The position numbers were made by a program, and so were the translations under genes. Shown here piece after piece: positions 8,292 to 42,727 of a stretch of 44,550 nt of DNA. Within the stretch, counting starts at the first letter, position 1; the number at the start of each line of letters is the position of its first letter. This stretch comes from a phage. The notes beneath the pieces were generated by a model. It was not told the DNA's origin and made no database searches. It worked only from the letters and a program-made list of their open reading frames with translations. The stretch is taken from sequence record PZ445417.1; one strand, written 5' to 3'.

Positions 8292-8292
8292 C

Positions 8293-10149: not shown

Positions 10150-10163
10150 TGGAGAATACTACA

Positions 10164-10840: not shown

Positions 10841-10842
10841 TG

Positions 10843-11157: not shown

Positions 11158-11225
11158 CATAAGGTTTGTTTTAAAATCGCTGATACAATATCAATCGGCA
11201 ACTGCATAAAAAAGGGGACTGCATA

Positions 11226-13868
11226 ATGGCAGATCAGGCAGCAGGCATCACGCTAAAGGCGGATGTCGCACAAATCAGAACGGCAAATACTGTGCTGGAC
11301 TCCTTCGCACAGAAATCCGAGAACACAGAAAACAAGGTTAAGAAATTAAACGACACCCTCGGCAAATCCAAAAAGGTGACGAGTGACGCCGCGGGTGGAA
11401 TGGAGAAGCTGGCGACTGAATCGCAGCGTGCCGCCGACGGCATGACGAAACAAGAGCGACTTGCCAACCGGTTAGGCATGTCGACCAAAAACCTGGGCTT
11501 TGCCTCGCGTAACGCCGCATTCCAGTTACAGGATATCGCAGTTACGCTTGAGATGGGGATGCCGGTGCACCGCGTCATGCTTCAGCAGTTACCGCAGCTA
11601 ACTGGGGCGTTCGGTGGATTTGGTAACACGCTGCGTTATGTTGCGGGCTTCCTCGGTCCGGTAGGGATCGGCATTGCAGCACTAACGGCAACGTTAGGCG
11701 TAGGAGTGGCGGTTACGTCCCGTGCCGAAAACCAGGTCGCAGCGCTTAACAAGACGCTGGCGCTGTCAGGTAACATTTCCGGCCTCACTGCAAACCAGAT
11801 CCTGGTGCTATCCGAGAACGCCGAGCGCATGGGGGGGTCATTCAGTAAGACGCGTGACACAATCCAGGCACTGGCGGCGGCGGGGGTGAAAGCGGGCGCT
11901 GACTTCGGCGCGCTTGCGAAGGTTGTGAATGACTTCGCGAAGGCGTCTAATCAGCCGATCGCGGACGTGGTGGGGTCTATCGCTAAATTATCCAACGACC
12001 CGGTTGGCGGACTGCGCGCACTGGCGGACCAGTACCACGTCGTTACCGAGGCGCAGATCCAGCAGGTGCAATCGCTTGTAAATATGGGGCGTGAAACGGA
12101 CGCGGTGGCTATGGCTAACAAAACCGCCGCGGCGTCGTTCGCCAGCATGACCAACGATGTCAAGGCCAACATGGGTACGCTTGAGCGGTCGATGAACGTC
12201 GTCACATCGGCAGCTAAATCAATGTGGGATGCCATCCTGGATGTTGGGCGCGCGCAGTCCTCGAATGAGTCCGAGATGAAAGCGCGTGAATCCTTGCAGC
12301 GCATGACCACGGCGTACTATGCCGAGATGAAGGCGGTAAACGCTGCCGGTGGGGTGATGACCGAAGCGCAGAAAGCGCGTATTAACATGCTTTACAGCGA
12401 ACTGGTCGCCCAGGAAAAGGTAGTGGCGTCGCTCACCCTGCGCAACCGTGCCGAGCGAGACAGCGCCAGCGCCGCGGATGAAGCAGCAAAGGCGAACGAG
12501 GAGGCAAACCGCACCGCCCGCGACCGCGCCGCGTTTGAGAAGGAGTACGCGACCAACGCAAAGCGGCGATCCGACGAGATCGCCCGCCTCAATTTGCTGA
12601 ATAAGCGCGGTGTTATTAACGAGAAAGAACTAGCCGAGGCGGTGAAGCAGGTCAACGAACGTTACAAAGACCCCGCCCAGAAGAAGGCCGCCGCTGTTCG
12701 AGTCGATGCCGGGCTGAAAATGCTGGAAGTCGCGCGAAGCGAATTAGCCCAGCTTCGTGAGTCTGGAAAGCAGATCGAAGCCAACGCATCGACGCAGACC
12801 CGCACGCAACGCGCGCAAGCGGCCCTTAACAAGCTGGTGGCGGATCATGAACAGTTAATCGCGGCGAGCAAAGAAAGGGCACTGACGGCGGCAGAAAAGC
12901 AGCAAATGGCGGAGTTCGAGTCGGTTAAATCTGTACGCGAGCAGATCGTAGAAGAAGCCAAATTGCTGGACGCGAAAGAGAAGCAGATCAAGGCACACGC
13001 CCAGGTCGAGGCTTTCATCAAGAACCAGAACGCCGAGCTAAAAGCCACCGCGGCGGGCTATGCGCTTTCTACTCGCGAAGCGGCTAACCTGCGCGAAGAG
13101 TTGCAGCTAATTGACCGTCTTCAGCGTGCCGGTGCTAACGATACTGATATTGACAAGGCGGTGTCTAAGCTGCGTGAGGTTCAGGAAGCACAGACCGGTG
13201 CTAACGCCTCATTATGGGATGGATTCAGTCGCGGGCTTCGCGATAGTGTGGATGAAATGGGTAACGGATACACGCAGATGGCGTCACTCACAAAATTCAC
13301 GTTCGGCGCTATGCAGGACACGATGAACGAGTTTTTCGAGACTGGCAAGCTGAACGCAAAGGATATGGTTAAGTCCATCCTGAGCGAATTAATCAAGCTG
13401 GCTACCTCGCAGGCGTTCAAGTCCATCGTTAGCGCTTTCGGTGGCGACGGCGGCAAAAACGGATTGTTCGGCGCTATCTTCTCTGGCCTCACTAAGAATG
13501 CAGACGGCGGAGCGTACACCGGAGGCAATCTCGCGGCCTATTCGGGGCAAGTGGTAAGCCAGCCCACTTTTTTCAGTTATGGCGTCCAGGCGTTCGCTAA
13601 GGGCGCAGGATTGATGGGGGAGGCGGGACCCGAGGCCATCATGCCGCTTAAGCGCGGGCCAGACGGTAAACTAGGCGTCGCCGCTGCCGGTGGGGTCGGT
13701 GGGATGATTGTAACGACCAACGTTAACATGGGGACCGGTAAGACGGATACCAGTGTTAGCGGACCGGACCCGCGCACCGCGCAGGCGTTCGGAAAGCAAA
13801 TCACCGAGTCGGTCAAGGCCGAGATCGTGAAGGCGACGAAACCGGGTGGTGTACTTTACAAACGATGA
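11226..13868 (+). CDS. tail tape measure protein
   Basis: 880 aa, AAGGGGA RBS. Long Ala/Gln/Glu-rich helical protein with a Gly-rich C-terminal part, located between the chaperone and tail tip genes. Confidence 0.85.
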   Translation: MADQAAGITLKADVAQIRTANTVLDSFAQKSENTENKVKKLNDTLGKSKKVTSDAAGGMEKLATESQRAADGMTKQERLANRLGMSTKNLGFASRNAAFQLQDIAVTLEMGMPVHRVMLQQLPQLTGAFGGFGNTLRYVAGFLGPVGIGIAALTATLGVGVAVTSRAENQVAALNKTLALSGNISGLTANQILVLSENAERMGGSFSKTRDTIQALAAAGVKAGADFGALAKVVNDFAKASNQPIADVVGSIAKLSNDPVGGLRALADQYHVVTEAQIQQVQSLVNMGRETDAVAMANKTAAASFASMTNDVKANMGTLERSMNVVTSAAKSMWDAILDVGRAQSSNESEMKARESLQRMTTAYYAEMKAVNAAGGVMTEAQKARINMLYSELVAQEKVVASLTLRNRAERDSASAADEAAKANEEANRTARDRAAFEKEYATNAKRRSDEIARLNLLNKRGVINEKELAEAVKQVNERYKDPAQKKAAAVRVDAGLKMLEVARSELAQLRESGKQIEANASTQTRTQRAQAALNKLVADHEQLIAASKERALTAAEKQQMAEFESVKSVREQIVEEAKLLDAKEKQIKAHAQVEAFIKNQNAELKATAAGYALSTREAANLREELQLIDRLQRAGANDTDIDKAVSKLREVQEAQTGANASLWDGFSRGLRDSVDEMGNGYTQMASLTKFTFGAMQDTMNEFFETGKLNAKDMVKSILSELIKLATSQAFKSIVSAFGGDGGKNGLFGAIFSGLTKNADGGAYTGGNLAAYSGQVVSQPTFFSYGVQAFAKGAGLMGEAGPEAIMPLKRGPDGKLGVAAAGGVGGMIVTTNVNMGTGKTDTSVSGPDPRTAQAFGKQITESVKAEIVKATKPGGVLYKR

Positions 13869-13903
13869 TAAAATGGCCCTCACTACAACGTGGGGGCTTT
13901 TTT

Positions 13904-14503
13904 ATGTCACAAGGTACAATTACACTAACTAAGGGAAGTAAGACCGTCACGGGCGCGGGAACGGCGTTCTTGAGCGAGATCGGGAAGGTACGCGTGTTCG
14001 CCCGCATCGACGGCAACGACTACACCGGAAAAATTGCGGCATTCAACTCTAACACCGTCATTACCCTGGCGGATAACTGGGCCGGGCCGACAAAAGCCGG
14101 TGCGGCCTATGAGCTAATCGAAGCGCATGACCCGCGATCAAACGAATGGCCCTATTACTGGCACATGCAATTGCAAGGCGGCGGAGACGTGCAGCTGGCT
14201 TTCCGGTCCGAGGAATTGCAATTCGGTAACGGTTACGGTCAGAACATCGCGGACGGCCCGAACGCCGAAACGAAACAGTTCCCCGTGCAATTCATCGGAC
14301 TGACTACTGACAAGTGGTGCAACCCTAAACTGGTTTACAACTTCCTTCGCGGGCACTTCGTCAAACCGTTTGTTGTCACCGCGCCGGATGGCGAAACAGG
14401 TTTATTCGTGGTTGAGCGTTCGAGCTTGTCGTACACTGACAACGGGCACTACACGGCAACGGTATCCGCCACCCTTAAGACTGCTATTGGATTCGTAAGA
14501 TGA
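13904..14503 (+). CDS. minor tail protein (lambda gpM position)
   Basis: 199 aa from the ATG at 13904 (GGGGG RBS), after a hairpin plus T6 that follows the tape measure stop. N-terminal ~70 aa resemble the N-terminus of the tail fibre at 21387. Confidence 0.5.
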   Translation: MSQGTITLTKGSKTVTGAGTAFLSEIGKVRVFARIDGNDYTGKIAAFNSNTVITLADNWAGPTKAGAAYELIEAHDPRSNEWPYYWHMQLQGGGDVQLAFRSEELQFGNGYGQNIADGPNAETKQFPVQFIGLTTDKWCNPKLVYNFLRGHFVKPFVVTAPDGETGLFVVERSSLSYTDNGHYTATVSATLKTAIGFVR

Positions 14504-15288
14504 ATAAACTTTATCACGAGGCGACGCGCTTTGACCCATCGGGACGCGTTCGCCTGATTCACATTGACGCGCAGGACGTGGAGCCTGGCGACGGCGCGAT
14601 CGGCGCGGGCCACCATTATTTTCACTACTGCTTTATTCCGCACACTGCCGAAGATATTGCTGCCGCTGGCGGAGACGAGGACAAGCTAAAGCCCAAATCT
14701 ATCTTCTTCGGCGGGCAGGAGTTCGAATTTTGGCCCTTCGATCTGTCCGGCCTTAACTTCTCTACATCAACGGCAGCAGAACCGCAGCTAACCATCGTTG
14801 ATATTGGCGGCATAATCACCCGTCTGTCGCTGAATCACGACCAGCTACTGGGCGCGAAGGTTGAGATCATTGATACGTTCGCGAAGTTCCTGGATAACGG
14901 GTCGGATCCAGACCCGACGCAAAAACGTGTCCAGGAGTATTACATAGACTCACAGGTCGGGCGCAATCCAGGCAAGCAGATCACCTTCGCACTATCCTCC
15001 CCCGCGGATATGGAAGGGCAGGTCGTCCCGCGTCGCCAAATCATGAACATGTGCGAATGGGCGTTAAATGGGAAGTACGCCAGCGGGGACGGTTGCACAT
15101 GGAACCTTGCACGGCCTGGCATCAAGTATTACGACGAGCGTGGAAACGAAGTTATCGCAATGAATATGGACCGCTGCGGCGGATGCTTGTCCGACTGCTA
15201 TCTTCGTTTTGGACAAGGGCTTGCGGACCCTAAAGCTGCGGTGCTGGACTTCGGCGGTTTTCCGGGGTCCAAATTAATTAAGGGGTAG
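14500..15288 (+). CDS. minor tail protein L-like
   Basis: 262 aa. Cysteine cluster C-x-W...C-T-W...C-G-G-C-x-x-x-C near the C-terminus, reminiscent of the lambda gpL Fe-S site. Synteny M-L-K-I-J. Confidence 0.7.
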   Translation: MNKLYHEATRFDPSGRVRLIHIDAQDVEPGDGAIGAGHHYFHYCFIPHTAEDIAAAGGDEDKLKPKSIFFGGQEFEFWPFDLSGLNFSTSTAAEPQLTIVDIGGIITRLSLNHDQLLGAKVEIIDTFAKFLDNGSDPDPTQKRVQEYYIDSQVGRNPGKQITFALSSPADMEGQVVPRRQIMNMCEWALNGKYASGDGCTWNLARPGIKYYDERGNEVIAMNMDRCGGCLSDCYLRFGQGLADPKAAVLDFGGFPGSKLIKG

Positions 15289-15290
15289 CC

Positions 15291-16031
15291 ATGCTAACGA
15301 AAAAGGTAAAAAGCGATATCGCCGCACATGTCGCGGCATGTCTGCCGGAAGAAGCCTGCGGCCTGGTCGTCATGGTGGGCCGTAAGCAAGTATTCGTCCC
15401 GTGCCTTAACGTGTTTGAAGACCCGACCGGCGTGCGCTCACGCAAAGACGCTTTCACGATTAGTGATATGGCCTGGATGGATGCCGAGGATATGGGCGAC
15501 GTCGTGCGCGTAGTCCACTCGCACCCAGGTCAGCGAGATCTAACCCCGTCGTTGGGCGACGTTAACGGATGCAACGGCAGCGGCGTCGTCTGGACCATCA
15601 CTAACGAATATGGCGACTTTATCGAGATCGACCCAGAAGACCCGCCGCTGGTAGGTCGCCGATTTGTTCTCGGAATTACGGACTGTTACGGCCTCGTTAT
15701 GGACTGGCATAAAAAGCAGGGCGTAAACCTGCCAGACTTCCGTGTACCGTACAACTGGTGGGAGACAGGCGAAAACCTGTATATGGACAATTGGTATGGC
15801 GCGGGCTTCCGGGAGTGTGAGGAGAATACGCCGGGGGCGATGGTCATCATGCAGATTAGCGCGCCAGTGCCTAACCATGCCGGAATCTTCCTTCCGGGCA
15901 ACCAACTTCTACACCATATCTACGGCAGCCTGTCGAGCGTGATTCCCTTCCGGGCAGGATTTTTCCGCGACAATGTGGTTAAATGGGTACGTCATAAAGA
16001 CCTACCGGGGAATATCACAGAATGGCAATGA
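15291..16031 (+). CDS. tail assembly protein K-like (JAB/MPN plus NlpC/P60)
   Basis: 246 aa. JAMM-like VHSHPG motif in the N-terminal half and a Cys/His-containing C-terminal half. Synteny. Confidence 0.7.
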   Translation: MLTKKVKSDIAAHVAACLPEEACGLVVMVGRKQVFVPCLNVFEDPTGVRSRKDAFTISDMAWMDAEDMGDVVRVVHSHPGQRDLTPSLGDVNGCNGSGVVWTITNEYGDFIEIDPEDPPLVGRRFVLGITDCYGLVMDWHKKQGVNLPDFRVPYNWWETGENLYMDNWYGAGFRECEENTPGAMVIMQISAPVPNHAGIFLPGNQLLHHIYGSLSSVIPFRAGFFRDNVVKWVRHKDLPGNITEWQ

Positions 16032-16636
16032 CCACGTTTAAATTGTACGGCGTCTTAGGACGTCGTTTCGGTAAAGTGCATAAGCTGGACTGCTTCACAC
16101 CGGGCGAGGGTATCACCGGCCTGTGCGTGAAGTTACCCGGCTTACAGGACTTTCTAATGTCGGCCCACCTGGACAACATGATGTTCAAAGTGCGCAAGGG
16201 CAATCACACCCTGACCGGCTACGATGAGCTGGGCGAGTTCCACGGCAATCGCGTTGTTACCATCGCACCGGTTATGACCGGTGCAAAGCGCGGACTAGGC
16301 CAATTACTGGCTGGCGTAGCCATCGTGGTGGCGTCGTTCTACACCGGCGGGCTTGCTACTGCCGCTTTTGGTGCTTCAGCCGCTACCGCTGCCGCTATTG
16401 GTACGGCAACGTTTTCGTTCGGGATGTCGATGGCGCTGGGTGGCGTTATGCAATTGCTGTCACCGCAGCCGAAAGGATTGCAAACACGGCAGGACGTGGA
16501 TAACAAGGCGTCGTATGCGTTCGGAGGGCCGGTAAACACGACCGCGCAGGGTACGGCACTTGGTGTATTATGGGGCGAGCGTGAGATCGGTGGCGCTATT
16601 ATTTCCGCCGGAATCGTAACCGAGGATTTGAACTAA
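16022..16636 (+). CDS. tail assembly protein I-like
   Basis: 204 aa, with a C-terminal Gly/Ala-rich hydrophobic segment. Lies between the K-like and J-like genes. Confidence 0.6.
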   Translation: MAMTTFKLYGVLGRRFGKVHKLDCFTPGEGITGLCVKLPGLQDFLMSAHLDNMMFKVRKGNHTLTGYDELGEFHGNRVVTIAPVMTGAKRGLGQLLAGVAIVVASFYTGGLATAAFGASAATAAAIGTATFSFGMSMALGGVMQLLSPQPKGLQTRQDVDNKASYAFGGPVNTTAQGTALGVLWGEREIGGAIISAGIVTEDLN

Positions 16637-19600
16637 TGACGATTATCTACGACGTCACGGGCCATAAAGGCGGCGGTGGTAAACAGCACACTCCGCAGGA
16701 AACGCCCGATAGCCTGCATTCGCAGGCTAAAGCCCGCATCTTGCTCGCACTGGGTGAAGGTGAGTTCGAGGGAATTCCGAGCAACAGCGAATTACGGCAG
16801 CGCGTTTATTTGGACGGCACACCGATCCAGAACTCCGACAGGTCGGAAAACTTCCCCGGCGCGCGCGTGGAGTTCCGCCCTGGCACACAGCACCAGAATG
16901 TGATCCACGGATTTTCAGCGGTAGAAAGCGAACAATCCGTCGGTGTAAAACTGGAAAACGGCAAGCCGTGGGTGCGCCAGATTAATGACACCAGTCTTGA
17001 CGCCGTGCGCATTCGAATCGGCATTCCGGCTTTGTACACCAACGAAGATAATGGCGACCTTGTGGGCGGGCGAGTAAACTACAAAATCGTTGTATATACC
17101 GATAACGCAAATCCGCGTGAATTCAAGTTCGCTGCCGTTGGTAAAACAATGTCGCTGTATGAGCGGGACCACCGCATCGAGCTACCGTCGAACGTGAACA
17201 CCGGCTGGCGCGTGGAAGTTCACCGCACAACGGCAGATTCCACATCGGCGAAAGTGGTGAACGATATCCAGGTACAATCCATCACTGAGATTATCGACGC
17301 CCGCCTGCGCTACCCGCTAACAGCGCTGTTGTTCGTTGAGTTCGACGCTAAAGCGTTCCAGAACATCCCGCGCGTATCCATTAAGTGCAAAGGACGAAAA
17401 GTTCTAATCCCGAACAACTACGACCCGATTAATCATACATATTCGGGCGACTGGGACGGGACGTTTAAACGCGCATGGACGGATAACCCTGCGTGGCACT
17501 GGTACGATATTTGTATTACTGAACGCTTCGGCCTCGGTCGCCGGATCAAACCGCAAATGCTGAACCGGTACGCGCTCTACCAGATTGCGCAGCGCTGCGA
17601 TCAGTTGGTCAGCGACGGCAACGGTGGTCGAGAAATCCGCTTTAAGAATGATATGTACATTCAGTCACAGACAGATGCCTGGACCGTGCTTAAGGATTTA
17701 GCAGCCATCTTTGCTGGTATGACCTGGTGGGGAAACCAGATGTTGAATATCGTCAGTGACCAGCCGGTCGCAGCGGTATCGCACACTATCACCAACGCCT
17801 CGGTTATTGATGGGCGATTCGACTACGCATCGGGTAGCCAGAAAACTCGCTATTCCACGTTCGCGGTAGCATACGGCAACCCGAAAAACCACTACGATGA
17901 TGCCATCGCAACGGGGCAACGTGTCGAACTGGTACGCCGCCATAAGATTAACCGTCTAGACATCACGGCGATCGGCTGTACGCGTGAATCAGAAGCGCAA
18001 CGCCGCGGGCACTGGGCGCTAATCTCCAACCAGCTTGACCAGCAAGTTAGCTTCAAGGTTGGCATGGAAGGACTATTCTTTATTCCTGGTAGCGTAGTCG
18101 CGATCGCAGATACAAACATTTCTGGCGGCTTCGAGACCCGAGGCGGTCGCCTGTTGTCAGATCCTGGTACGCGGACTGTGCTGAATACAGACAGCGAAAT
18201 CACGTTCCGCCCAGGTGATAAATTCCTGGTACGCACCGATAGCGGCAATGTGGAGACCCGCGAGATCGCCAGCGTTAACGGCAACAAGGTAACGCTAAAA
18301 ACCGCGCTGGACTCCGACCCTATCCCAGATCAACCGTTTTGCGTTGATGGCGATGATATCCAGTTGCAGAAGTTCCGAATCACCGACCTGGAATATGACG
18401 ACTCTACCAGCACTTTTTCAGTGCGCGGGATCGAGTACAACGATAGCAAATATGATGCCGTTGATAATGGCGCTCGCCTTGACCCGGGCATCTTCACGCA
18501 AGTGCCTGACGGCGTAATGAAGGGGCCGGAATCCGTGACTATCACCCCGTCGCAGATTTCATCACAAGGCCAGCTAATCACCAACGTGGATATTGTTTTC
18601 CCGCCGGTGAAGGATGCTGTGGTGTATGAAATCCAGTGGCGACGCACCAGCTTGCAGAATATGGCGATCCAGTGGGGTAACGACTGGGTGAACATCCCAC
18701 GCACGGCATCGAACGGCGCGCACATCCCGAACGTGTTTTCCGGAAACTATCAAGCACGCGTTCGCGCGATTGGTATGGGCGAGATTTCATCCCCGTGGGT
18801 GTCGTCTGCCATCACGCCGGTGGAAGGGCGTCTCGGCGGTCTTAACGCGCCAATCATCACCAACGCGATTTCGGGCCTCCACCAGATTTTGTGGAAATGG
18901 AACCACAACAACGCCGCGACGGATATTTCATACACCGAGCTTGAAGTGCGCAAGACTGGTGAAACGGAGTGGGAGTTCTTAACCAACGTCCCATATCCTG
19001 GGTCGGAGTACGCGCAAACGTCGCTGGAGTTTGGCATTTACCAGCAGTTGCGCGCCCGTGTAGCGGATAAAATCGGCAACCTGTCGGACTGGTCAGCCCC
19101 GTTTGAAGGCCAGGTGAGTGACGAAGTCGACGAGTACATGAAGGGGCTTGATGACGCGTTCTTGACTTCCGAGGATGGAAAACACTTCCAGGAAGCGATC
19201 GACACCATGCCGCAAGGTATCTACGAGGCCATGCTCACCGACGCACAGCAATTGTTTAACGCCCGCGCCGAATATAAAGGGATTTATGCAGAAATCAAGG
19301 TGGCGTATAACGTGGCGGTGGATGCTAACGAGGCCGTGGCGCAACTGGAGACGTTGATCGGCACGCGCCTTGACGATGCGGAAGCGTCAATCCACACGTT
19401 GCAGACCGCGCAAAGCACACACGAACAAGCGTTCGCCCAGTACCAGCAAACTGTAGCCGCTAAGTTCGGGGAGCAGGAAGCTGCCATCCAGCAGGTACAA
19501 ACGGCAACGGCAGACGTAGCTGGCGCGCTGGCGGAGTACAAAACGCAGGTCGCAGCACAGTTCGACCAGCAGTCCGCCGCTATTGAGCAAAAGATGACGT

Positions 19601-20055
19601 CTTCGTTTAACCATGCAGGTGGTAACGCCACGTACAGCCTTAAGGCGGGCGTGACGTATAACGGGACTTACTATGATGCTGGTATGCAGCTTTCCGTCGT
19701 GGCGGAAGGTGGCGCGGTTAAATCCCGCATCGCGTTCAAGGCGGACCAGTTTTACATCATGCACCCGTCGAATGGGTCGCTTACGTCCGCGTTTATCGTT
19801 GACGGGGGGCAGGTGTACATTGACACGGCACGCATCAAGGATGCGACTATCAACTTCGCGCAGATCACGGACACGCTTCAGTCGAATAACTACGACGGCA
19901 GCACGCGCGGATGGCGCTTAGGGAAAGACGGAACGTTTATCAACCTGGGAACCGGCAACGGCGGCGCGATGAAACAGACGAACACGCAAATCAGCGTCAG
20001 GGATGGAAACGGCGTTCTCCGCGTGCAGATTGGTGAAATCACGGGTAGTTGGTAG
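16636..20055 (+). CDS. central tail fibre / host specificity protein (lambda gpJ-like)
   Basis: 1139 aa; the ATG overlaps the previous stop (TAATG). Largest ORF of the tail module. Domain content (fibronectin III-like repeats) is recalled, not searched. Confidence 0.8.
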   Translation: MTIIYDVTGHKGGGGKQHTPQETPDSLHSQAKARILLALGEGEFEGIPSNSELRQRVYLDGTPIQNSDRSENFPGARVEFRPGTQHQNVIHGFSAVESEQSVGVKLENGKPWVRQINDTSLDAVRIRIGIPALYTNEDNGDLVGGRVNYKIVVYTDNANPREFKFAAVGKTMSLYERDHRIELPSNVNTGWRVEVHRTTADSTSAKVVNDIQVQSITEIIDARLRYPLTALLFVEFDAKAFQNIPRVSIKCKGRKVLIPNNYDPINHTYSGDWDGTFKRAWTDNPAWHWYDICITERFGLGRRIKPQMLNRYALYQIAQRCDQLVSDGNGGREIRFKNDMYIQSQTDAWTVLKDLAAIFAGMTWWGNQMLNIVSDQPVAAVSHTITNASVIDGRFDYASGSQKTRYSTFAVAYGNPKNHYDDAIATGQRVELVRRHKINRLDITAIGCTRESEAQRRGHWALISNQLDQQVSFKVGMEGLFFIPGSVVAIADTNISGGFETRGGRLLSDPGTRTVLNTDSEITFRPGDKFLVRTDSGNVETREIASVNGNKVTLKTALDSDPIPDQPFCVDGDDIQLQKFRITDLEYDDSTSTFSVRGIEYNDSKYDAVDNGARLDPGIFTQVPDGVMKGPESVTITPSQISSQGQLITNVDIVFPPVKDAVVYEIQWRRTSLQNMAIQWGNDWVNIPRTASNGAHIPNVFSGNYQARVRAIGMGEISSPWVSSAITPVEGRLGGLNAPIITNAISGLHQILWKWNHNNAATDISYTELEVRKTGETEWEFLTNVPYPGSEYAQTSLEFGIYQQLRARVADKIGNLSDWSAPFEGQVSDEVDEYMKGLDDAFLTSEDGKHFQEAIDTMPQGIYEAMLTDAQQLFNARAEYKGIYAEIKVAYNVAVDANEAVAQLETLIGTRLDDAEASIHTLQTAQSTHEQAFAQYQQTVAAKFGEQEAAIQQVQTATADVAGALAEYKTQVAAQFDQQSAAIEQKMTSSFNHAGGNATYSLKAGVTYNGTYYDAGMQLSVVAEGGAVKSRIAFKADQFYIMHPSNGSLTSAFIVDGGQVYIDTARIKDATINFAQITDTLQSNNYDGSTRGWRLGKDGTFINLGTGNGGAMKQTNTQISVRDGNGVLRVQIGEITGSW

Positions 20056-20065
20056 CATAGGGGCT

Positions 20066-20090
20066 TCGGCCCCTTTCTTTTGGAGGTAAT
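20066..20090 (+). terminator. rho-independent terminator
   Basis: AGGGGC-ttcg-GCCCCT hairpin followed by TTCTTTT. Confidence 0.55.
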
Positions 20091-20092
20091 GC

Positions 20093-21071: not shown

Positions 21072-21092
21072 AAGCCCCTTTCGGGGCTTATT
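21072..21092. terminator. bidirectional terminator
   Basis: AAGCCCC-tttc-GGGGCTT hairpin with an A-run upstream and T-rich downstream, between convergent genes. Confidence 0.6.
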
Positions 21093-21306
21093 TGCAGGTT
21101 GTGCTTTTGAAGTGGTCAACTGACACATACTGGAAGTTAAACGGGTAGCCAGCCATGAGCATTTTGTGACCGCTAAAATCTGCGACCCCAAACACAGGGA
21201 CGGAATACTCCATGTCGCTATTCAGGTATGTCGCGTCGCAGATTTTAGACGGCATAGTGGAACAACCGGACAAAAGAACCGCACAAATCATAATTAAAGT
21301 TTTCAT
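21088..21306 (-). CDS. small lipoprotein, candidate superinfection-exclusion protein (Cor/Llp-like)
   Basis: 72 aa from the ATG at 21306. Signal peptide MKTLIMICAVLLSGC with lipobox LSGC and a Cys-containing mature part. Minus-strand gene between the J-like and fibre genes with its own promoter-like motif and terminator. Confidence 0.55.
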   Translation of the reverse strand: MKTLIMICAVLLSGCSTMPSKICDATYLNSDMEYSVPVFGVADFSGHKMLMAGYPFNFQYVSVDHFKSTTCK

Positions 21307-21337: not shown

Positions 21338-21370
21338 GTATTACACCGCTCAACCAGGATTGCAACCAAT
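21338..21370 (-). promoter_or_regulatory. sigma70-like promoter embedded in an ATTGGTTGCAA motif
   Basis: On the minus strand: ATTGGTTGCAA (-35 TTGCAA), 16 bp, TAATAC, ending about 30 nt upstream of the lipoprotein start. Confidence 0.45.
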
Positions 21371-24184: not shown

Positions 24185-24676
24185 TTATTTAAGTGCGCCA
24201 GTCACCAGTGTTTTTTCCATGTTACGGAAATCTTCCTGCGTCATGAGGATTTTAGATCCGTCTTCGCCGGTGAGCACGACCATAGGCTGGACGTCTTGAT
24301 CTGCGATGCCGAAATTAGCGGCTTTGACCGTCTTGCCCGCGGAAGAATGCCAGCCTTTTAGGCTTTCAAATTGTTCTGCCGTTGTATCGATCTGAATCTC
24401 GTCATGCACAGTCATGTAAGACTCGCCAAGCAGGGCGGCATACGCCACCAGATCCACGATGTTATCATCCTGGTGCTTACGGTGCTGGCGCACCAGCTTC
24501 AGGCAGATCAGGAAGGTCCAGGCTTCTTGCTCGGTCAGGTCGCGACCGGTAAGCGCGTTAAACACGGCAGCGATTTGTTTAGCGCTGCGCTCCTCTTTCG
24601 CGTTGTCATAGCCGTTTTCTTTCCCGCGCTGTTCCATAGTGGTGGCGGCGTTTTTGCAGTATTCGTATGCTTTCAT
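24185..24676 (-). CDS. hypothetical protein (163 aa)
   Basis: Preferred start is the ATG at 24676 with an AAAGGA RBS; the alternative is the ATG at 24700. No recognisable motif. Confidence 0.5.
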   Translation of the reverse strand: MKAYEYCKNAATTMEQRGKENGYDNAKEERSAKQIAAVFNALTGRDLTEQEAWTFLICLKLVRQHRKHQDDNIVDLVAYAALLGESYMTVHDEIQIDTTAEQFESLKGWHSSAGKTVKAANFGIADQDVQPMVVLTGEDGSKILMTQEDFRNMEKTLVTGALK

Positions 24677-24717: not shown

Positions 24718-24747
24718 ACTATAGTGCAACCAACCTATTGGTTGCAA
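24718..24747 (-). promoter_or_regulatory. sigma70-like promoter within a 22-bp palindrome TGCAACCAA-ccta-TTGGTTGCA
   Basis: On the minus strand: TTGCAA, 18 bp, TATAGT. The palindrome spans 24725-24746. Confidence 0.45.
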
Positions 24748-25426: not shown

Positions 25427-25892
25427 GGAGTTCTCCTTCGCTCATTATTTCAATTTGTGCGCTGCCGGTTGGTGGCGCTTCGTCAAATATTATCAATTGC
25501 TGGCACTTGTTATTGCTCGGACCGACTTCACCGGTGACAGCGTGTATAAATCTAATCCGCCAGTCCAGAAGAATTATCAGGTTTGCAGTCCTCCGGGCCA
25601 GCCTCGCCCACTTCGTCGACGTGTCCTGATTCAGTAGCATGACAGTCCGGCGACCGTGCGCTGCGCACTCGACCCACGGCAGCGGATCGGAATATGGCGG
25701 ATTGCACCACTTCCACCCTTTCAACTCTGCCCAGTCCACATCAAGCGCGCTGTGCTCTGCCGTGAAGTAACGCGGTAGCAGATGATTGGCATCGCTTGCC
25801 GCCATATCGTAACGGAATCGGTATTTCCGACGAAGCGGTTTAAATAACGCTGGCGGCGTGCGCCAGCTATCTTTTTGCTCACTCTTCTGCAT
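25407..25892 (-). CDS. DNA N6-adenine methyltransferase (phage Dam-like)
   Basis: 161 aa. N-terminal DSWRTPPALF and the catalytic NPPY motif (WCNPPYS) of amino-methyltransferases. Confidence 0.75.
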   Translation of the reverse strand: MQKSEQKDSWRTPPALFKPLRRKYRFRYDMAASDANHLLPRYFTAEHSALDVDWAELKGWKWCNPPYSDPLPWVECAAHGRRTVMLLNQDTSTKWARLARRTANLIILLDWRIRFIHAVTGEVGPSNNKCQQLIIFDEAPPTGSAQIEIMSEGELLEYLNR

Positions 25893-26343
25893 GGTCGGTG
25901 TCTATCGCATACAGGGCGATTTTATTGCCGGTCTTGAGAATGCGTTGCACGCGCTTTGACTCCACAGCACTAAGCGGGCGCGCGTCCGGGTAGAAGCTGC
26001 CATTTGTAGGGTTGCGCCACGCCATAAGCACCAAATCTTTACGGTCAACCTTAGACTGGCGACCCTTCGGTCGCACGTACTCCTCAGCACGTTTACAATG
26101 TTCACGCAAACCATCGGCAGTGATGCGGTTTAGTGCAACGCTGGTGGTGTATCCGGTGCGCTGCATAATCCCCATCAGTTCGAAAAGCAGTACGAAGCGC
26201 TCCGCTAGCTCCTGGCGCACTTTCTTCTCTCCTTCATATAGCGCCTGGTTGGTGTCCGCCAACGCGTTCGCACGTTCTGCCTGCTCGCGGGCTTCTAGGC
26301 ATTGCGCGGCCCAGTAATTTTTCTCTTCTTGTAAAATTTTCAT
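25879..26343 (-). CDS. hypothetical protein (154 aa)
   Basis: ATG with GGAGA RBS. Predicted coiled-coil N-terminus. Confidence 0.5.
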   Translation of the reverse strand: MKILQEEKNYWAAQCLEAREQAERANALADTNQALYEGEKKVRQELAERFVLLFELMGIMQRTGYTTSVALNRITADGLREHCKRAEEYVRPKGRQSKVDRKDLVLMAWRNPTNGSFYPDARPLSAVESKRVQRILKTGNKIALYAIDTDHAEE

Positions 26344-26390: not shown

Positions 26391-26441
26391 AATATAATGC
26401 AACCAATATGATTATGCAACCAATATGATTATGCAACCAAT
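26391..26441 (-). promoter_or_regulatory. three tandem 17-bp repeats ATTGGTTGCATAATCAT with a promoter-like arrangement
   Basis: Three direct copies at 26398-26441. On the minus strand: TTGCAT (copy 2), 17 bp, TATATT. Confidence 0.5.
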
Positions 26442-26765
26442 TTACGCATAAAAGTTCGGGTCGCGTGCAACGTCTACCAGGTAAAGGTTGCTTATGCGGT
26501 TGCCGTAGTGCCCTGGAGTGCGCTGGCGGCACACAACGGCGAAGCCTGGGGGGATTGTATTGCCCGTCTCAATAATCCACGCCACGCGTGCGCCAGACAG
26601 TGTCTTGCCGTTGTATTCGATACGTGTTCCACCATCGGCGGTGTTGATGTTGCCAATCTTGCAGCCCGTGGACTTCAGACGGATGACTCCGGTTTTGCTG
26701 TCGTAGGTGAATAGCTGGTTAGTCATTGCGACCGAAAAATCGATGGTTTCGTATGTAGCGTTCAT
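26442..26765 (-). CDS. HNH-like (homing-endonuclease-related) domain protein, possibly degenerate
   Basis: 107 aa. The pattern GTRIEYNGKTLSGARVAWII...GHYGNRISNLYLVD resembles HNH_3/NUMOD4-type phage proteins but lacks clear catalytic His residues. Confidence 0.35.
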   Translation of the reverse strand: MNATYETIDFSVAMTNQLFTYDSKTGVIRLKSTGCKIGNINTADGGTRIEYNGKTLSGARVAWIIETGNTIPPGFAVVCRQRTPGHYGNRISNLYLVDVARDPNFYA

Positions 26766-27457
26766 TTTAAATTTTCCTCGTTAACCGCTATCGCGAAGCC
26801 GCGCGGAGTGAGCGACCGGATTAATTTTGTGCGGGCTGATTTGCCTCCGAGGCGACTATACTGTTTCGAGTACCCTTTTTCAACGAAAACAGGTTTCTTC
26901 TCTGGCATACGGAAACCGTTGCCGGTCCATAAGCAGGTCAGCTTCGGATATGAATCGCGGGCGTTGATGTATTCCGGGAAGAGCGGGTGTACGTCATCCT
27001 CCGGCAGATATCCCCCATACTCCCACGGATCAAACGAGTGGTCTGGTTTACGCCACTTGGTGGAAAGTACACTGCGCGGATTCTCAATCATATATGGCAC
27101 TTCAAAGAAGTCACCTAAGTAAGCGGCAATCTTCGCGGTGCGCACCGCCTTAAGCTGAAAGGCGGGGTCTCTAGCACGCTTGCGCGGGAAAGCAGGTGCA
27201 CCGCTCACTGCCAGATCCGTGCATGGAGGAAACGCATATATGATATCAGGCGTACCAAAATCGCCATTCATCGCGCGGTCTACAAAGTCCAGATCGATAA
27301 ACTCATTGCGATACCGGATTCCGCGGCCATAAATCCGGTAGTCAAGGTACGACCCGTGATCGGCTTCGGAGTAGTTGAAGCAATAGCACTTATGCCCCAT
27401 CTCGGCAGCACGCTCAATCATCAAGCCGCTGCCGTCAAACAATGACCAGATTATCAT
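26762..27457 (-). CDS. DNA cytosine-5 methyltransferase-like protein
   Basis: 231 aa. Motif I-like LFDGSGL, motif IV-like FPPCTDLAVSG (PC catalytic dipeptide) and motif VI-like ENP, in the canonical order. Short for a complete C5 methyltransferase. Confidence 0.5.
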   Translation of the reverse strand: MIIWSLFDGSGLMIERAAEMGHKCYCFNYSEADHGSYLDYRIYGRGIRYRNEFIDLDFVDRAMNGDFGTPDIIYAFPPCTDLAVSGAPAFPRKRARDPAFQLKAVRTAKIAAYLGDFFEVPYMIENPRSVLSTKWRKPDHSFDPWEYGGYLPEDDVHPLFPEYINARDSYPKLTCLWTGNGFRMPEKKPVFVEKGYSKQYSRLGGKSARTKLIRSLTPRGFAIAVNEENLK

Positions 27458-29144: not shown

Positions 29145-29318
29145 TTATTCTTGTTCTGCACGATAGCGGCGCTGCCGTTCGCGCTCTTTCTTATTGCGGC
29201 ACGACTTGCACTCGGCCCGATGACCGTCTGGACTTCGCGCAGTTTTGCCGGTGTACTTGTGGAACTGGGATAGCGGCTTGATGCATCCGCAATTACTACA
29301 ACGTTTTTCTTCAATCAT
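29145..29318 (-). CDS. small zinc-ribbon protein (57 aa)
   Basis: ATG at 29318 with GAGGA RBS. CxxC...CxxC pattern (CSNCGC...CKSC). Confidence 0.4.
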   Translation of the reverse strand: MIEEKRCSNCGCIKPLSQFHKYTGKTARSPDGHRAECKSCRNKKERERQRRYRAEQE

Positions 29319-29349: not shown

Positions 29350-29383
29350 ACTATACCGCTATGCGACCAATTCAGCAACCAAT
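29350..29383 (-). promoter_or_regulatory. sigma70-like promoter with two ATTGGT(T/C)GC motif copies
   Basis: On the minus strand: ATTGGTTGCTGA-ATTGGTCGCA, -35 TTGCTG, 17 bp, TATAGT. Lies in the 3' end of the VRR-NUC gene, upstream of the zinc-ribbon gene. Confidence 0.4.
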
Positions 29384-33132: not shown

Positions 33133-33222
33133 TTTCCAATTCCTCATTTTCACATGTATCGGGGTTATTGGAAGCCACCCCGTTCGGCTTGGTTGCTAAT
33201 TTACTTGGTTGCGCCTAAGCGG

Positions 33223-36082: not shown

Positions 36083-36115
36083 ATTGGTTGCAGGATAGGT
36101 GTCAACAACTAATTT
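36083..36115 (+). promoter_or_regulatory. rightward early promoter P1 (ATTGGTTGCAG motif)
   Basis: ATTGGTTGCAG (-35 TTGCAG), 16 bp, TAATTT. Confidence 0.45.
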
Positions 36116-36222: not shown

Positions 36223-36251
36223 TTGACACCCCGCGGTTTTAGGTGTAGTTT
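36223..36251 (+). promoter_or_regulatory. rightward early promoter P2
   Basis: TTGACA, 17 bp, TAGTTT, about 30 nt upstream of the RBS of the HTH gene. Confidence 0.55.
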
Positions 36252-36282
36252 CGTTGGTCATTAACCAACCGGAGACAGAACA

Positions 36283-36612
36283 ATGAATATCGACGACGCA
36301 ATCGAAATGTTAACTAAGACTGTTTGCAGTGAGACAAGCCGGTCCTGGGCATATACCGATGCCGTGGGGGCGGTGTTATTCGAAATCGAACGTCTGCGCC
36401 GTGTCGAAAAAGAATTGCGCGCGAAGCTGGAATTACTCAACGGTACAGCAGCCAGCAAGCTGCAAAAGCACAATGAAGAAATGGAAGAATACAAAAAACA
36501 GGTTATCCGTTTGCGCGATGAGGGAAAGTCATGGGCGATGATTGCCGAGTTAACCGGAATTAATCAGAGCACAGTGCGCTCCTGGGTACGCAATAATAAA
36601 ACTTCTAAGTAA
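36283..36612 (+). CDS. HTH DNA-binding protein (putative regulator or replication accessory protein)
   Basis: 109 aa, GGAGA RBS. C-terminal helix-turn-helix KSWAMIAELTGINQSTVRSWV; coiled-coil middle part. Confidence 0.55.
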   Translation: MNIDDAIEMLTKTVCSETSRSWAYTDAVGAVLFEIERLRRVEKELRAKLELLNGTAASKLQKHNEEMEEYKKQVIRLRDEGKSWAMIAELTGINQSTVRSWVRNNKTSK

Positions 36613-36616: not shown

Positions 36617-38887
36617 ATGGCAATGAGCTTAATTAAATTCGCGGTAACAAGACCCGCTAAAAAAGGCGAAAAAGCCAGGGCGGAAAACTTCCAGATGACC
36701 ACCGACGAGTTTTTCGAATTTATCAACGATGCTAAAGAAATATCCTCGGTGCATATCAACAAGACGGAAGATAAAGCCGAGTATGCGCGCCGCAAGCGTA
36801 AGGCCGATGGCATTGTGGCTTATACCAGTGATGGGCTGCGCCGCAAGACCAGTGCGGTGGATCGCTCGATCCTGTTCTTCGATATTGACCGTACCGACAC
36901 CCGCACCCTGCGCCGCTGCCGTAAGGCTTTCATCGACGCAGGACTGGAACATGTATTTCACACCACAACCGGCGACCGCCACCCGCTGAAAGGAGGCACG
37001 CGTTGCGCTCGTTTCCTGGTGCTCACCGATAAGCCTGTACCTGCTGAAGACCTGGGCCGCGTCCAGTATGCACTATTACACCAACTGGGCCTGTCAGATG
37101 TGGACTTCGATGATTGTACGAAAGACACAAACCGCCTTATGTACCTGCCTCACCAGCAATCGGTTATTAAGTGTCACTACGGCAAACGTGCCCGCGTCCG
37201 TCGTCTGCTTCGCCTGGCTGATAAGCTGGGAGTGGAAAAAGAGGAAGTACGCCGCGAACTAACCCAGGGCGATGACGGCGTGGCTGACGGTATTCTGGAT
37301 TGGTGCTTCCAGGCGGGATTCGAACCGCTGTCGTCCGGGCGTGGCTATGAAGTGCCGTGCCCTAACGAACACCTGCACAGCGGCGAAGGGTCCACCGCTA
37401 TCATGGTTAAGGATGGAGAGATCCGTTTCAAGTGTATGCACACCGGCAACGAGTGTTGCTCGGAACTGAACAGACACCAGCACCTGGCGCTACGTCTTAT
37501 CGGGATACCGGACCACCTGAACGTCGAACCACACAACATGTCTCGTAAGCAAATCGCCGCCATCCTTCCGGGACTGGACGACGAGGAAGTCGAATCGTGC
37601 TATGAACATATCGTTGATGCGGTCGGTGACGGCGACGAGTACGGCGGATGTACGGACGCAGACCTGGACAACGAGCCGGTTGCACTGTTCAGCAAGCACG
37701 ACCCGATCATCGAGGGGTTGATTAACTTTAAATCGACCTGGTACATGGCTGGCGAGTCGAACATCGGTAAATCTTTCTACGTGCTGGGGCAGATGGGTGC
37801 GATTGCCGCGGGCATTCCGTTTGGCGGTGCGAAGGTCGTCCAGTCTCATTGCTTCTATTTCGACGCGGAAGGTGGCGAAGCCTCTAACCAGCGTAAGGAG
37901 GCATTGCAGATCAAATATGAGCACGACCTGGACAAGCTGCACATTATAGACCTGCAATCACGCGGCTGGGATATCACCAGCAAATCCGGCTTGCGTGAAG
38001 TTATCAGCTTCATCAACCGCACCGCTAACGGCGAACCGGTGGGCCTGGTGGCGTTCGACTCACTCAACCAGACTGTTGCGCTGCGGTCCGCCGATGCTAA
38101 ACCGTTCGACGAGAACAACGCCAGCGATATGGGCGAAGTGGTCAAGGCGCTGAAGGCCATCGCAGAAAATACAGGCGGCAGTGCGGGCGTCATCCACCAC
38201 CCGGCGAAGGGTGCAAACGGCAGTAGATCCCCCCGCGGGTCCGGCGCGCTGCATGGTGCTGTCGATTCCGCGTTCTTCCTGGAGCAACCGGACGACAATC
38301 AGCCGGGCCAATTGAACCTGTATCACGAAAAAGCACGTAACGGCATCAAGCAAGCGCCGCGTGGCTTCGTCCTGCTCAAGTGCAAGGTTAAGGTGGATCT
38401 CCGCAAGTCCGAGGCGTTCGAATCGCACCAGTCCACCAGCACCGGGCCGGACTTCGGCGATGTGGTTGCCGGTTGGGACGTCAAGCCAATTGCCTCCACG
38501 CCACGCGACGAGACTCTTTACCTCGTACCGGTCGCCCTGGCGCCGTTCGCAATCGAACAGGCAAAGGCAGCGGGCAAAGCAGCAGTTAAGGAAGAGAACA
38601 CCGCCGGACCGCGCAACGAAAAAGAGAAAGTGCTTTATGCGGCACTGGAAAAACTGATGGAAGATAACCCGGACCATACCGGATTCAGTAAATCGGCGAT
38701 TGTCCGCCAGGCGGGATTGGCAAAAGGTGGCACATCGACGAAGGCAATCGACGATATGGTCGAGCGCGGCGTACTCGGTTTTTATACAGATCCGCACACT
38801 GGGGCCATCTATGGGTCGTCGAATATCGTCATTAAAACAAGTATACCCATCACGCTTTCGGCGACAGATGACGACCTGAAAGATTAA
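36617..38887 (+). CDS. DNA primase/helicase (prim-pol-like N-terminal domain plus RecA-like ATPase)
   Basis: 756 aa. N-terminal acidic motif LFFDIDR and HVFHTTTG (archaeo-eukaryotic primase-like), a Cys/His cluster, and Walker A GESNIGKS with Walker B-like VAFDSLNQ. Confidence 0.7.
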   Translation: MAMSLIKFAVTRPAKKGEKARAENFQMTTDEFFEFINDAKEISSVHINKTEDKAEYARRKRKADGIVAYTSDGLRRKTSAVDRSILFFDIDRTDTRTLRRCRKAFIDAGLEHVFHTTTGDRHPLKGGTRCARFLVLTDKPVPAEDLGRVQYALLHQLGLSDVDFDDCTKDTNRLMYLPHQQSVIKCHYGKRARVRRLLRLADKLGVEKEEVRRELTQGDDGVADGILDWCFQAGFEPLSSGRGYEVPCPNEHLHSGEGSTAIMVKDGEIRFKCMHTGNECCSELNRHQHLALRLIGIPDHLNVEPHNMSRKQIAAILPGLDDEEVESCYEHIVDAVGDGDEYGGCTDADLDNEPVALFSKHDPIIEGLINFKSTWYMAGESNIGKSFYVLGQMGAIAAGIPFGGAKVVQSHCFYFDAEGGEASNQRKEALQIKYEHDLDKLHIIDLQSRGWDITSKSGLREVISFINRTANGEPVGLVAFDSLNQTVALRSADAKPFDENNASDMGEVVKALKAIAENTGGSAGVIHHPAKGANGSRSPRGSGALHGAVDSAFFLEQPDDNQPGQLNLYHEKARNGIKQAPRGFVLLKCKVKVDLRKSEAFESHQSTSTGPDFGDVVAGWDVKPIASTPRDETLYLVPVALAPFAIEQAKAAGKAAVKEENTAGPRNEKEKVLYAALEKLMEDNPDHTGFSKSAIVRQAGLAKGGTSTKAIDDMVERGVLGFYTDPHTGAIYGSSNIVIKTSIPITLSATDDDLKD

Positions 38888-38962
38888 ATTTTGCGCGCAT
38901 TGGTTGCCGATATGGGAATTCCCATATCGCTAAAAGATTAAATTTTGCGCGCATTGGTTGCC
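38881..38962. repeat. two perfect 28-bp direct repeats flanking a perfect 22-bp palindrome
   Basis: AGATTAAATTTTGCGCGCATTGGTTGCC at 38881-38908 and 38935-38962. Palindrome CGATATGGGAATTCCCATATCG at 38908-38929. Each repeat contains ATTGGTTGCC. Confidence 0.8.
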
Positions 38963-39046
38963 ATTTTGGGCGTTTTTAACTGGTCGTATTGGTTGCCGTG
39001 TAGTGTAAATATAATGAATAGTTATGCAATAAAACTGCATAAAGTA

Positions 39047-39204
39047 AGCGGGACAAAAAGCGGGACAAACAAGGGGCGGGACAAAGCGGGACAGCACCCC
39101 TGTCCCGCCCCGGATGACGCGGCCTGGAGAGGAGCGGGACAGCGGGACAGCACCCCAGTCTTTCAGACTAGACGGGGGTCAACGGCCCCCCTCGTCTGAG
39201 ACTG
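39047..39204. repeat. non-coding repeat element, copy 2 (CGGGACA iterons plus conserved hairpin)
   Basis: Six CGGGACA copies, a GCGGGACAG-cacccc-TGTCCCGCC dyad, and a hairpin at 39156-39204 that differs from copy 1 only in its loop. Confidence 0.7.
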
Positions 39205-39360
39205 AATAAAATCCGGGAATTGCAAAAATACACGGCAGCATGACGCGAAGTGCGGTCGCGGATGAACTAGGCAACCAATGCTAGTTGCATTATGCTGAGT
39301 GAAAAATGCAGTTTGCAGTCACAGCAGATAGCGATCAACTTTTTCATGCGCGTGATTAAT

Positions 39361-39401
39361 ATTGGTTGCATCCGCCCTGGCACCCTGCTATATTGGTTGC
39401 A
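39361..39401 (+). promoter_or_regulatory. sigma70-like promoter with two ATTGGTTGCA copies
   Basis: ATTGGTTGCAT (-35 TTGCAT), 17 bp, TATATT, then a leader GGTTGCACACCAACAAGAGGAC nearly identical to the one upstream of 4453-5217. Confidence 0.5.
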
Positions 39402-42524: not shown

Positions 42525-42585
42525 CTTGACTTGCAACCAACATAGACGCCATACTGCGACCAATCAACAAGAGGAGTATTACACT

Positions 42586-42666: not shown

Positions 42667-42727
42667 CCCGCTGCAATAGGGACCGTGGTATATTGTCCTC
42701 GGTCCCATAATCAGGAAGTGGATTAAT

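Follow-up and report, generated by a model that had tools for sequence, protein, structure and literature searches.

A dispersed ATTGGTTGCA motif at the predicted early and accessory promoters of a Dhillonvirus is probably an operator, with a small helix-turn-helix protein as its candidate reader

What reads the tandem repeat at positions 26397 to 26441 of phage sequence PZ445417.1, and why does its repeating unit recur across the genome? The window analysed here is the whole 44,550-nucleotide stretch, a complete genome of the genus Dhillonvirus (HK578/SO-1-like virulent Escherichia coli siphophages) with 91 to 94% nucleotide identity to Zumzum, Oekolampad, and others; a first 6-kb query from the window matches 162 records of the phage collection. 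A preliminary description of this DNA, based on its letters alone, listed a recurrent motif at 11 or more intergenic sites and left two readings standing: a phage promoter family with an added factor-binding site, or an operator for a phage regulator. Of the two, the operator is what the anatomy of the sites and comparison with relatives bear out; a -35 element that faces the gene behind it describes no more than a minority of copies. The motif ATTGGTTGCA (core TTGGTTGC) is, in our assessment, very probably an operator-type site for a protein, and the best candidate for that protein is a 109-residue helix-turn-helix (HTH) protein encoded at the divergent early promoters. Full-text literature searches, and a reading of the YD-2008.s, eiAU, and BASEL papers, yielded no account of the motif or of promoters in Dhillonviruses. 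In the GenBank records of relatives that were inspected, terminators are the only regulatory annotation, and nothing is said about the transcription programme.

The features at the array itself are as follows.

26397-26441, minus strand: tandem array of three perfect 17-bp units (Tandem Repeats Finder: period 17, 2.6 copies, 100% match)
26398-26407, 26415-26424, and 26432-26441, minus strand: the ATTGGTTGCA copies of the array, which start directly after the stop codon of an HNH gene
26419-26391, minus strand: predicted promoter of gene 25879-26343, with -35 TTGCAT (26419-26414), a 17-nt spacer, and -10 TATATT (26396-26391)

The three copies thus fall at the -35 element, in the spacer abutting the -10 element, and further upstream. 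Judging from the alignment, the third unit, which is specific to the window, is a recent duplication, because all five aligned relatives hold two units each. A terminator-like hairpin with a T-run (26388-26363) directly follows the -10 element, and a start 6 to 8 nt past this -10 would lie within the 5' arm of the hairpin. As such, transcripts from upstream could terminate here while those of the 25879-26343 promoter escape.

The recurrence of the motif is real. In an unbiased k-mer scan, ATTGGTTGCA is the most overrepresented 10-mer of the genome, with 11 exact copies against 0.12 expected, and copies with up to one mismatch number 20 against 3.52 expected, a count equalled by none of 100 shuffles. 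Exact TTGGTTGC cores are mostly intergenic (17 of 21, p=3e-17), although the intergenic share of the genome is 6.5%; of the remaining four, two occur at a gene's 3' edge. A copy was present at each location previously listed. When all copies are aligned, the TTGGTTGC core is invariant, A mostly stands on either side, and conservation ends there, an alignment that is partly circular in that copies were picked by likeness to the pattern. Neighbouring copies are spaced 9, 12, 13, 14, 16, 17, 23, 31, 35, or 54 bp apart. Relative to local transcription, 8 of about 21 are antisense. No intergenic region of the late structural block (6072-20092) holds a copy. Two intragenic copies had escaped the earlier survey.

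39925-39934, minus strand: exact copy inside gene 39738-40013, kept in SO-1 and CHD5UKE2
15897-15906, minus strand: GTTGGTTGCC, inside a minor tail gene and kept in relatives; probably a coding coincidence

To place the copies relative to genes, the annotation of Oekolampad was carried over by tblastn. The plus-strand late operon opens with TerS (44000) and takes in the tail genes up to 20055, with two reverse-oriented accessory genes in or beside it: 4453-5217, whose product is an Nmad5 (nucleotide-modification-associated) protein (Pfam, 1.3e-51), and the Cor-like 21088-21306. A leftward replication operon extends from about 36060 down to 23567. A rightward operon begins at 36283 with the gene for the 109-residue protein and continues through the primase-helicase gene to small genes and the lysis cassette. 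Promoters were called as matches to the sigma70 consensus, that is, TTGACA-like and TATAAT-like hexamers 16 to 18 bp apart with at least 9 of 12 matches, or were listed by eye; that these boxes are functional promoters is what we infer from the pattern. Ten motif-bearing sites fit it, each with a gene start about 20 to 60 nt downstream on the same strand. Apart from the array promoter, the relevant features are the following.

5276-5247, minus strand: predicted promoter of the Nmad5 gene 4453-5217 (TTGCAA-18-TATATT)
5240-5249 and 5254-5263, minus strand: two direct copies, one in the spacer and one over the -10/+1 region of promoter 5276-5247
21365-21338, minus strand: predicted promoter of the Cor-like gene 21088-21306 (TTGCAA-16-TAATAC), its -35 supplied by a single copy at 21361-21370
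24747-24718, minus strand: predicted promoter of 24185-24676 (TTGCAA-18-TATAGT)
24725-24734 (minus strand) and 24737-24746 (plus strand): inverted pair (palindrome) inside promoter 24747-24718, one copy covering the -35 and the other abutting the -10
29378-29350, minus strand: predicted promoter of the Lar-like gene 29148-29318 (TTGCTG-17-TATAGT)
29362-29371 and 29374-29383, minus strand: two direct copies with 1 mismatch each, one supplying the -35 and the other filling the spacer
33226-33198, minus strand: predicted promoter of the gene for a gp2.5-like single-stranded DNA-binding protein (SSB) (TTGACC-17-TAAATT)
33188-33197 and 33204-33213, plus strand: two inverted copies with 2 mismatches each, at +1 and in the spacer abutting the -10 of the SSB promoter
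36105-36076, minus strand: predicted leftward early promoter, TTGACA-18-TATTAT with 11 of 12 matches, which is the best sigma70-like match in the early region
36083-36092, plus strand: inverted copy in the spacer of 36105-36076, 1 nt from the -10
36223-36251, plus strand: predicted rightward early promoter (TTGACA-17-TAGTTT)
36253-36269, plus strand: GTTGGTCATTAACCAAC, following 36223-36251, a degenerate inverted copy or a TTGGT-N5-ACCAA palindrome; also degenerate in SO-1
39366-39394, plus strand: predicted promoter of 39423-39728 (TTGCAT-17-TATATT)
39361-39370 and 39392-39401, plus strand: two direct copies, one at the -35 and one over the -10/+1 region of promoter 39366-39394
42526-42555, plus strand: predicted promoter of a 26-residue open reading frame (ORF), 42587-42667, and of gene 42728-43870 (TTGACT-18-CATACT)
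42532-42541 and 42555-42564, minus strand: two inverted copies, beside the -35 and at the +1 of promoter 42526-42555

Across these ten sites, the motif takes one of three positions: at the -35 element (direct copies only), in the spacer abutting the -10 element (in either orientation), or over the -10/+1 region. A count that pools the window with four relatives of about 71% identity gives 63 exact cores, of which 32 fall between -30 and +19 relative to the -10 of a full TTGnnn-16/18-(-10) promoter, a zone that takes in 4.2% of random positions. The pooled offsets gather at -26 to -28 (nine copies, direct only), at -9 to -11 (six direct and five inverted), at +4 to +7 (four), and at +13 to +15 (five). 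The use of both orientations at one spacer position, together with copies over +1, fits steric occlusion rather than a fixed contact with polymerase. Three promoters with a TTGAC(A/C/T) -35 of their own (36105-36076, 33226-33198, and 42526-42555) nonetheless carry the motif, inverted, in the spacer, beside the -35, or at +1. In all, the operator reading is favoured because the motif occupies several positions in core promoters, stands in both orientations in the spacer, and is present beside consensus -35 elements.

The preliminary description had placed the TTGCA core 16 to 18 bp upstream of a -10-like hexamer "in most cases." The arrangement exists well above the background of 3.5% but is confined to 7 of 23 copies (about 6 of 11 sites), so "most" was an overstatement; only in these seven copies is the motif itself the -35 element. 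Its caution that a pure promoter reading is incomplete holds, given the variable position and orientation of the copies, and the three sites that it found not to face a gene can be explained as inverted operators in opposite-strand promoters or as flanks of an iteron cluster. The leader ATATTGGTTGCACACCAACAA(C)GAGGAC that it reported upstream of both 4453-5217 and 39423 is also present as described. The two leaders are nearly identical as a consequence of a shared layout in which one copy covers the -35/spacer and a second covers the -10/+1 region. An RNA-level reading of this shared leader, as a TTGGT..ACCAA hairpin, was rejected: in both leaders the fold is no better than that of shuffled sequences (minimum free energy -2.4 kcal/mol, z = +0.2), Rfam gave no matches, and many copies of the motif are antisense. 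In SO-1, a different gene (5082-5632) stands behind the same motif-bearing promoter and leader as 4453-5217 in the window, and the regulated promoter appears to be a cassette reused for different accessory genes.

Comparison across relatives covered the core Dhillonviruses Oekolampad, WFI, Zumzum, CHD5UKE2, and SO-1, along with 14 IMG/VR contigs; the IMG/VR scan for relatives returned 15 loci, nearly all of them core Dhillonviruses. All core Dhillonviruses examined keep the motif sites at the same places. Among them, invariant columns make up 85% of the motif columns, compared with 67% of the remaining intergenic ones (Mann-Whitney p=4e-6), while the bases between tandem copies vary, as does copy number. 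More informative are five metagenomic relatives (L009, L010, L012, L028, and L029) that are about 71 to 73% identical to the window over the roughly half of their sequence that aligns. These carry 7 to 15 cores per 10 kb, and the promoter logic is the same even as the detail differs. In four of them (L009, L010, L012, and L029), the spacer of the leftward promoter, between TTGAC(A/G) and the -10 element, is filled by a single inverted copy or by two, although the surrounding sequence differs. In L009, L010, and L012, a full inverted copy lies 8 nt past the -10 of the promoter of the 109-residue protein gene, which is a classical position for autoregulation.

The candidate reader occupies the following position.

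36283-36612, plus strand: gene for the 109-residue protein (SO-1 gp47), which is first in the rightward operon and is followed after 4 nt by the primase-helicase gene

Its product matches HTH_23 (4.6e-7), Sigma70_r4_2 (2e-6), and HTH_28 (4e-6) in Pfam and, weakly, extracytoplasmic function (ECF) sigma factors (2.5e-4) and IS630 transposase in NCBIfam, all below the curated cutoffs of the full families. It is not a member of HTH_3, the Cro/CI family (E=0.007, 16.8 bits against a cutoff of 23), and does not align to the syntenic lambda-repressor-like protein of phage Otaku. The AlphaFold model (pLDDT 84) shows a long helix (residues 26 to 79) ending in a three-helix C-terminal HTH. Foldseek with this model returned only generic HTH domains (IstA, LuxR/GerE, and resolvase), none with an E-value below 0.4, and a sequence search of the Protein Data Bank returned only a "CAP REPEAT" entry and coiled-coil noise. 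The family is very small, with 24 clusters at 90% identity; at 50%, it accounts for three full-length members of 1.84 billion representatives. Across its homologs (P0001 to P0025), the last ~60 residues are almost invariant, and the first ~45 are hypervariable or wholly replaced; the CHD5UKE2 homolog has 149 residues.

Database labels for this family include transposase, resolvase, and Gam-like nuclease inhibitor. A transposase identity was rejected, as the protein consists of a helix and an HTH with no catalytic domain and its likeness is limited to the N-terminal HTH of transposases; a sigma factor identity was rejected for want of region 2. The "transposase" or "Gam-like" label, copied over at least 150 genomes, is probably wrong. 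HTH signals were found in only two of the ~35 nonstructural window proteins scanned, a set that leaves out a few very small ORFs. The 36283-36612 product is the only early protein with a clear HTH. The other, encoded by 42728-43870, combines a weak N-terminal HTH with a metallophosphatase and is labelled "putative transcriptional regulator" in SO-1. It was rejected as reader, since it is present in the motif-less Jersey-type phages and absent from motif-rich L012.

The distribution of the protein follows that of the motif closely. Both are present in every Dhillonvirus examined and in L009, L010, L012, L028, and L029; both are absent from the Jerseyviruses SS3e and buks and from the Cornellvirus FSL SP-031, which have replication genes in common with the window and encode other HTH proteins at the position of the 109-residue protein gene. 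An equivalent dispersed motif in Jersey-type phages was considered and set aside, as their enriched k-mers (TGCCGTTGT) look mostly coding, judged by eye. On this co-occurrence and on gene position, the 36283-36612 protein probably reads the motif.

The explanation that we propose runs as follows. After injection, host sigma70 polymerase would fire the divergent promoters 36105-36076 and 36223-36251, with the HTH protein as the first rightward product. As it accumulates, the protein would occupy one to three sites per promoter, at the -35, in the spacer by the -10, or over the -10/+1 region. Occupancy would exclude RNA polymerase and turn down about ten promoters, serving the segments of the replication operon, 4453-5217, 21088-21306, the gene 39423 cluster, and 42587/42728. 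The protein's own promoter would be turned down too, through the weaker site at +1. Late head and tail promoters without a site (TGTTATAAT; AATTTTGCGA-N16-TAAYAT) would stay on, and the GCATTGGTTGCC copies that flank the GCGGGACA iterons may give the protein a second role at a replication origin. The net effect of the reader on motif promoters is, on balance, likely to be repression. For the whole explanation, in which the 109-residue protein docks at ATTGGTTGCA operators and turns promoters down, we see the chances as about evenly divided.

Several findings weigh against it. Copies that provide a promoter's only -35 element (21361) could equally fit activation, the 9- to 54-bp spacing of copies fits no simple dimer geometry, and the promoters are all consensus matches, of which the scan shows no excess over shuffled sequences. 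The Serratia phage Otaku has the motif and lacks the protein: GTTGGTTGCA is its second most enriched 10-mer, with 12 cores, and no homolog of the 109-residue protein was found even by profile search of its six-frame ORFs. Of the 12 Otaku cores, nine are coding, and the 3' end of the Otaku primase-helicase gene has four of them within 115 bp. (Otaku cores are found at 26646-26767, 24856, 24931, and 29422; the cluster at the helicase end adjoins a 585-bp noncoding stretch.) In close relatives, the primase-helicase accompanies the motif just as faithfully as the HTH protein, which makes the two indistinguishable by distribution. Finally, P0025, the most distant member of the family (on L029), has the recognition helix VSTIKNWIYRK in place of QSTVRSWVRNNK and goes with an unchanged motif; the link between protein and motif is therefore one of co-occurrence and not of covariation.

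The same evidence can be read in other ways. The plainest alternative takes the motif as the extended -35 of an early-promoter family read by host sigma70 polymerase alone, with ATTGG as an upstream enhancer. TTGCA(A/T) does agree with TTGACA at four of six positions, the seven copies followed by a -10-like hexamer exceed background, and at exactly -26 to -28 there are nine direct copies from across the lineages. Yet the best-conserved part, the invariant TTGG at -40 to -36, lies outside what sigma70 reads; in the spacer, eleven copies reach up to the -10, some direct and some inverted, with others over the -10/+1 region; the three window promoters with their own TTGAC -35 bear an inverted motif; and four copies flank an iteron cluster without promoter geometry. 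We consider this alternative unlikely. The main functional rival keeps a bound protein and changes the sign of its action, making it an activator, or else a dual switch, comparable to T4 MotA at -30, lambda CII on TTGC repeats at -35, or phi29 p4, that turns on "middle" promoters through the motif as -35 while repressing the consensus early promoters. It gains from the resemblance of the reader's HTH to sigma region 4 (the Sigma70_r4_2 and ECF sigma matches above), from the fixed -27 offset of direct copies, and from the Cor-like promoter, whose single copy is at -35; a dual switch would also predict the repressive position of the motif at consensus early promoters. It is disfavoured, and rather improbable in our view, because most promoters with a -35 copy also hold a second one against the -10 or over +1 (5240, 26398, and 39392), where it would block polymerase. 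Moreover, no MotA, AsiA, or CII family match was found by Pfam among the ~35 nonstructural proteins, and the -35 hexamers that the motif provides are already four-of-six matches with good -10 boxes.

Two further alternatives turn away from a phage regulator of early transcription. The motif could be a replication element, a site for the primase-helicase (its C-terminal ~220 residues) or a helicase loader, with the promoter copies secondary. Pointing this way are the gene order, in which the primase-helicase gene comes directly after that of the HTH protein at all loci examined, the three direct copies and one inverted copy that bracket the GCGGGACA iterons just past the helicase gene, the copy within the 3' end of the helicase gene in relatives, and Otaku, whose helicase (46% identity), in the absence of the HTH protein, is accompanied by the cluster of four copies at the 3' end of its gene. 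About three-quarters of the copies, however, are spread over ten promoter cores and 37 kb at precise offsets from the -10, the second iteron cluster (10871-11103) is without a copy, and FSL SP-031 shows no motif enrichment despite a helicase 44% identical to that of the window, which leaves this alternative about as doubtful as reading by sigma70 alone. A host transcription factor exploited by the phage, such as the LacI-family CytR reading GTTGCA half-sites, is very improbable. The CytR octamer GTTGCATT has an overlap with GTTGCA, the half-sites of CytR may vary in spacing and orientation, and the motif is common to phages of E. coli, Shigella, and Sodalis. Against this, the conserved ATTGG is outside the CytR octamer, the bases after GCA are not conserved, and phages of the same hosts without the HTH protein are also without the motif (buks of E. 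coli K-12; SS3e and SP-031 of Salmonella). We know of no E. coli factor with the consensus of the motif, and readings as sigma54 (GG-N10-GC) or CytR sites disagree in spacing and flank conservation, judged by inspection.

A more elaborate version of repression by the 109-residue protein is also conceivable, though decidedly speculative and improbable. Here the protein would be a mimic of sigma region 4 that competes with sigma70 at TTGCA and also organises the iteron origin, coupling early shut-off to the start of replication, with the variable N terminus tuning interactions with partner or host.

The region downstream of the primase-helicase gene holds the motif copies that lie apart from promoters.

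38899, 38953, and 38988 (span 38899-38997), plus strand: GCATTGGTTGCC variant copies, ending in C, located past the primase-helicase gene and to the left of the GCGGGACA cluster
39270-39279, minus strand: inverted GGCAACCAATGC copy, right of the iteron cluster

GCGGGACA occurs 14 times exactly, against 1.9 expected, in two clusters: 10871-11103, between the tail chaperone and tape-measure genes, and 39048-39149, just downstream of the primase-helicase gene. The GenBank record of SO-1 marks both as repeat regions A and B, and CTGCATA recurs in both. By analogy with ori/crr of P4, the two clusters may form a two-part origin. Four motif copies bracket the iterons downstream of the primase-helicase gene; most copies are dispersed over promoters. 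A perfect 20-bp palindrome, GATATGGGAATTCCCATATC (38909-38928), lies between 41-bp direct repeats (38876-38916 and 38930-38970), each of which holds a motif copy. The string AAATTTTGCG, the same as at the late AATTTTGCGA sites, precedes two of the motif copies after the helicase gene (38884-38898 and 38938-38952).

These late sites, before the scaffold and major capsid genes, carry no motif, and neither does the promoter-like site before TerS. An extended -10, TGTTATAAT, at 43922-43930, which immediately follows a terminator-like hairpin and precedes the small terminase gene by ~70 nt, is from its sequence a candidate late-operon promoter. Before the scaffold and major capsid genes (5284-5311 and 6099-6126), AATTTTGCGA-N16-TAATAT/TAACAT is found, and sites of this type may form a second promoter class without ATTGGTTGCA. 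Directly behind predicted promoter 42526-42555, the 26-codon ORF 42587-42667 (MARNDIWVLAIWSAAAFIGMVICELL), hydrophobic and unannotated, is preceded by a GAGGAG ribosome-binding site.

Dhillonviruses are among the most often isolated E. coli siphophages, and members are included in the BASEL reference set. For these phages, the motif maps about ten early and accessory promoters and one candidate regulator. If the proposed explanation is true, it would describe a simple timing circuit for a virulent siphophage, a Cro-like turn-down without lysogeny, built from compact regulated promoter cassettes that phages reuse before different accessory genes, and it would offer a handle for engineering Dhillonviruses. 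The circuit is new yet conceptually an ordinary repressor-operator system, unsurprising to a phage biologist.

Among known systems, the sigma-region-4 and IS630/Tc1 transposase HTH domains share with the 109-residue protein its weak HTH matches and a site with a -35-like TTGCA in it. Such HTH domains, as monomers, recognise asymmetric sites of about 10 bp. The protein differs in having neither region 2 nor a transposase catalytic domain. The TTGC-N6-TTGC sites of lambda CII and P22 C1 are likewise TTGC direct repeats straddling the -35 and are read by a small phage HTH protein, as may be the case here, but the unit in the window is TTGGTTGC, spaced at 9 to 54 bp and found also over the -10/+1 region and in spacers, and no CII homolog was found in the scanned protein set. 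The T4 MotA box is comparable as a phage-specific 9- to 10-bp motif with TTGC at the -35 and a retained sigma70 -10, and the nine direct copies at a fixed offset recall it. MotA, however, acts at one position (-30) and in one orientation, whereas the window motif occupies four zones, in both orientations and also over +1, with -35-like hexamers that remain usable; no MotA or AsiA homolog was found by Pfam or PHROG in the scanned protein set. P1 C1 is comparable in layout, as its asymmetric operator occurs singly or in pairs at scattered promoters, in either orientation, overlapping the -35 or the -10. The window has the same dispersed asymmetric operators over promoters, although C1 is an unrelated protein of 283 residues with a 17-bp site and a role in the upkeep of lysogeny, compared with 109 residues, 10 bp, and a lytic phage here. 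Lambda Cro at OR/OL differs in fold family (HTH_23/sigma-r4/transposase-like here, with a weak, sub-cutoff HTH_3 match), in its 17-bp pseudopalindromic site as opposed to a 10-bp asymmetric unit, in acting at two operator clusters and not at about ten promoters genome-wide, and in having a CI partner, which this virulent phage lacks. The proposed turn-down is what Cro brings about in the lytic growth of lambda, and the two agree in gene position and site placement: both are small HTH proteins encoded by the first gene of the rightward operon at divergent early promoters, each has sites over the cores of the early promoters in both directions, that of its own gene among them, and in the related phages Otaku and FSL SP-031, genuine Cro/CI-type HTH proteins are encoded at the same gene position.

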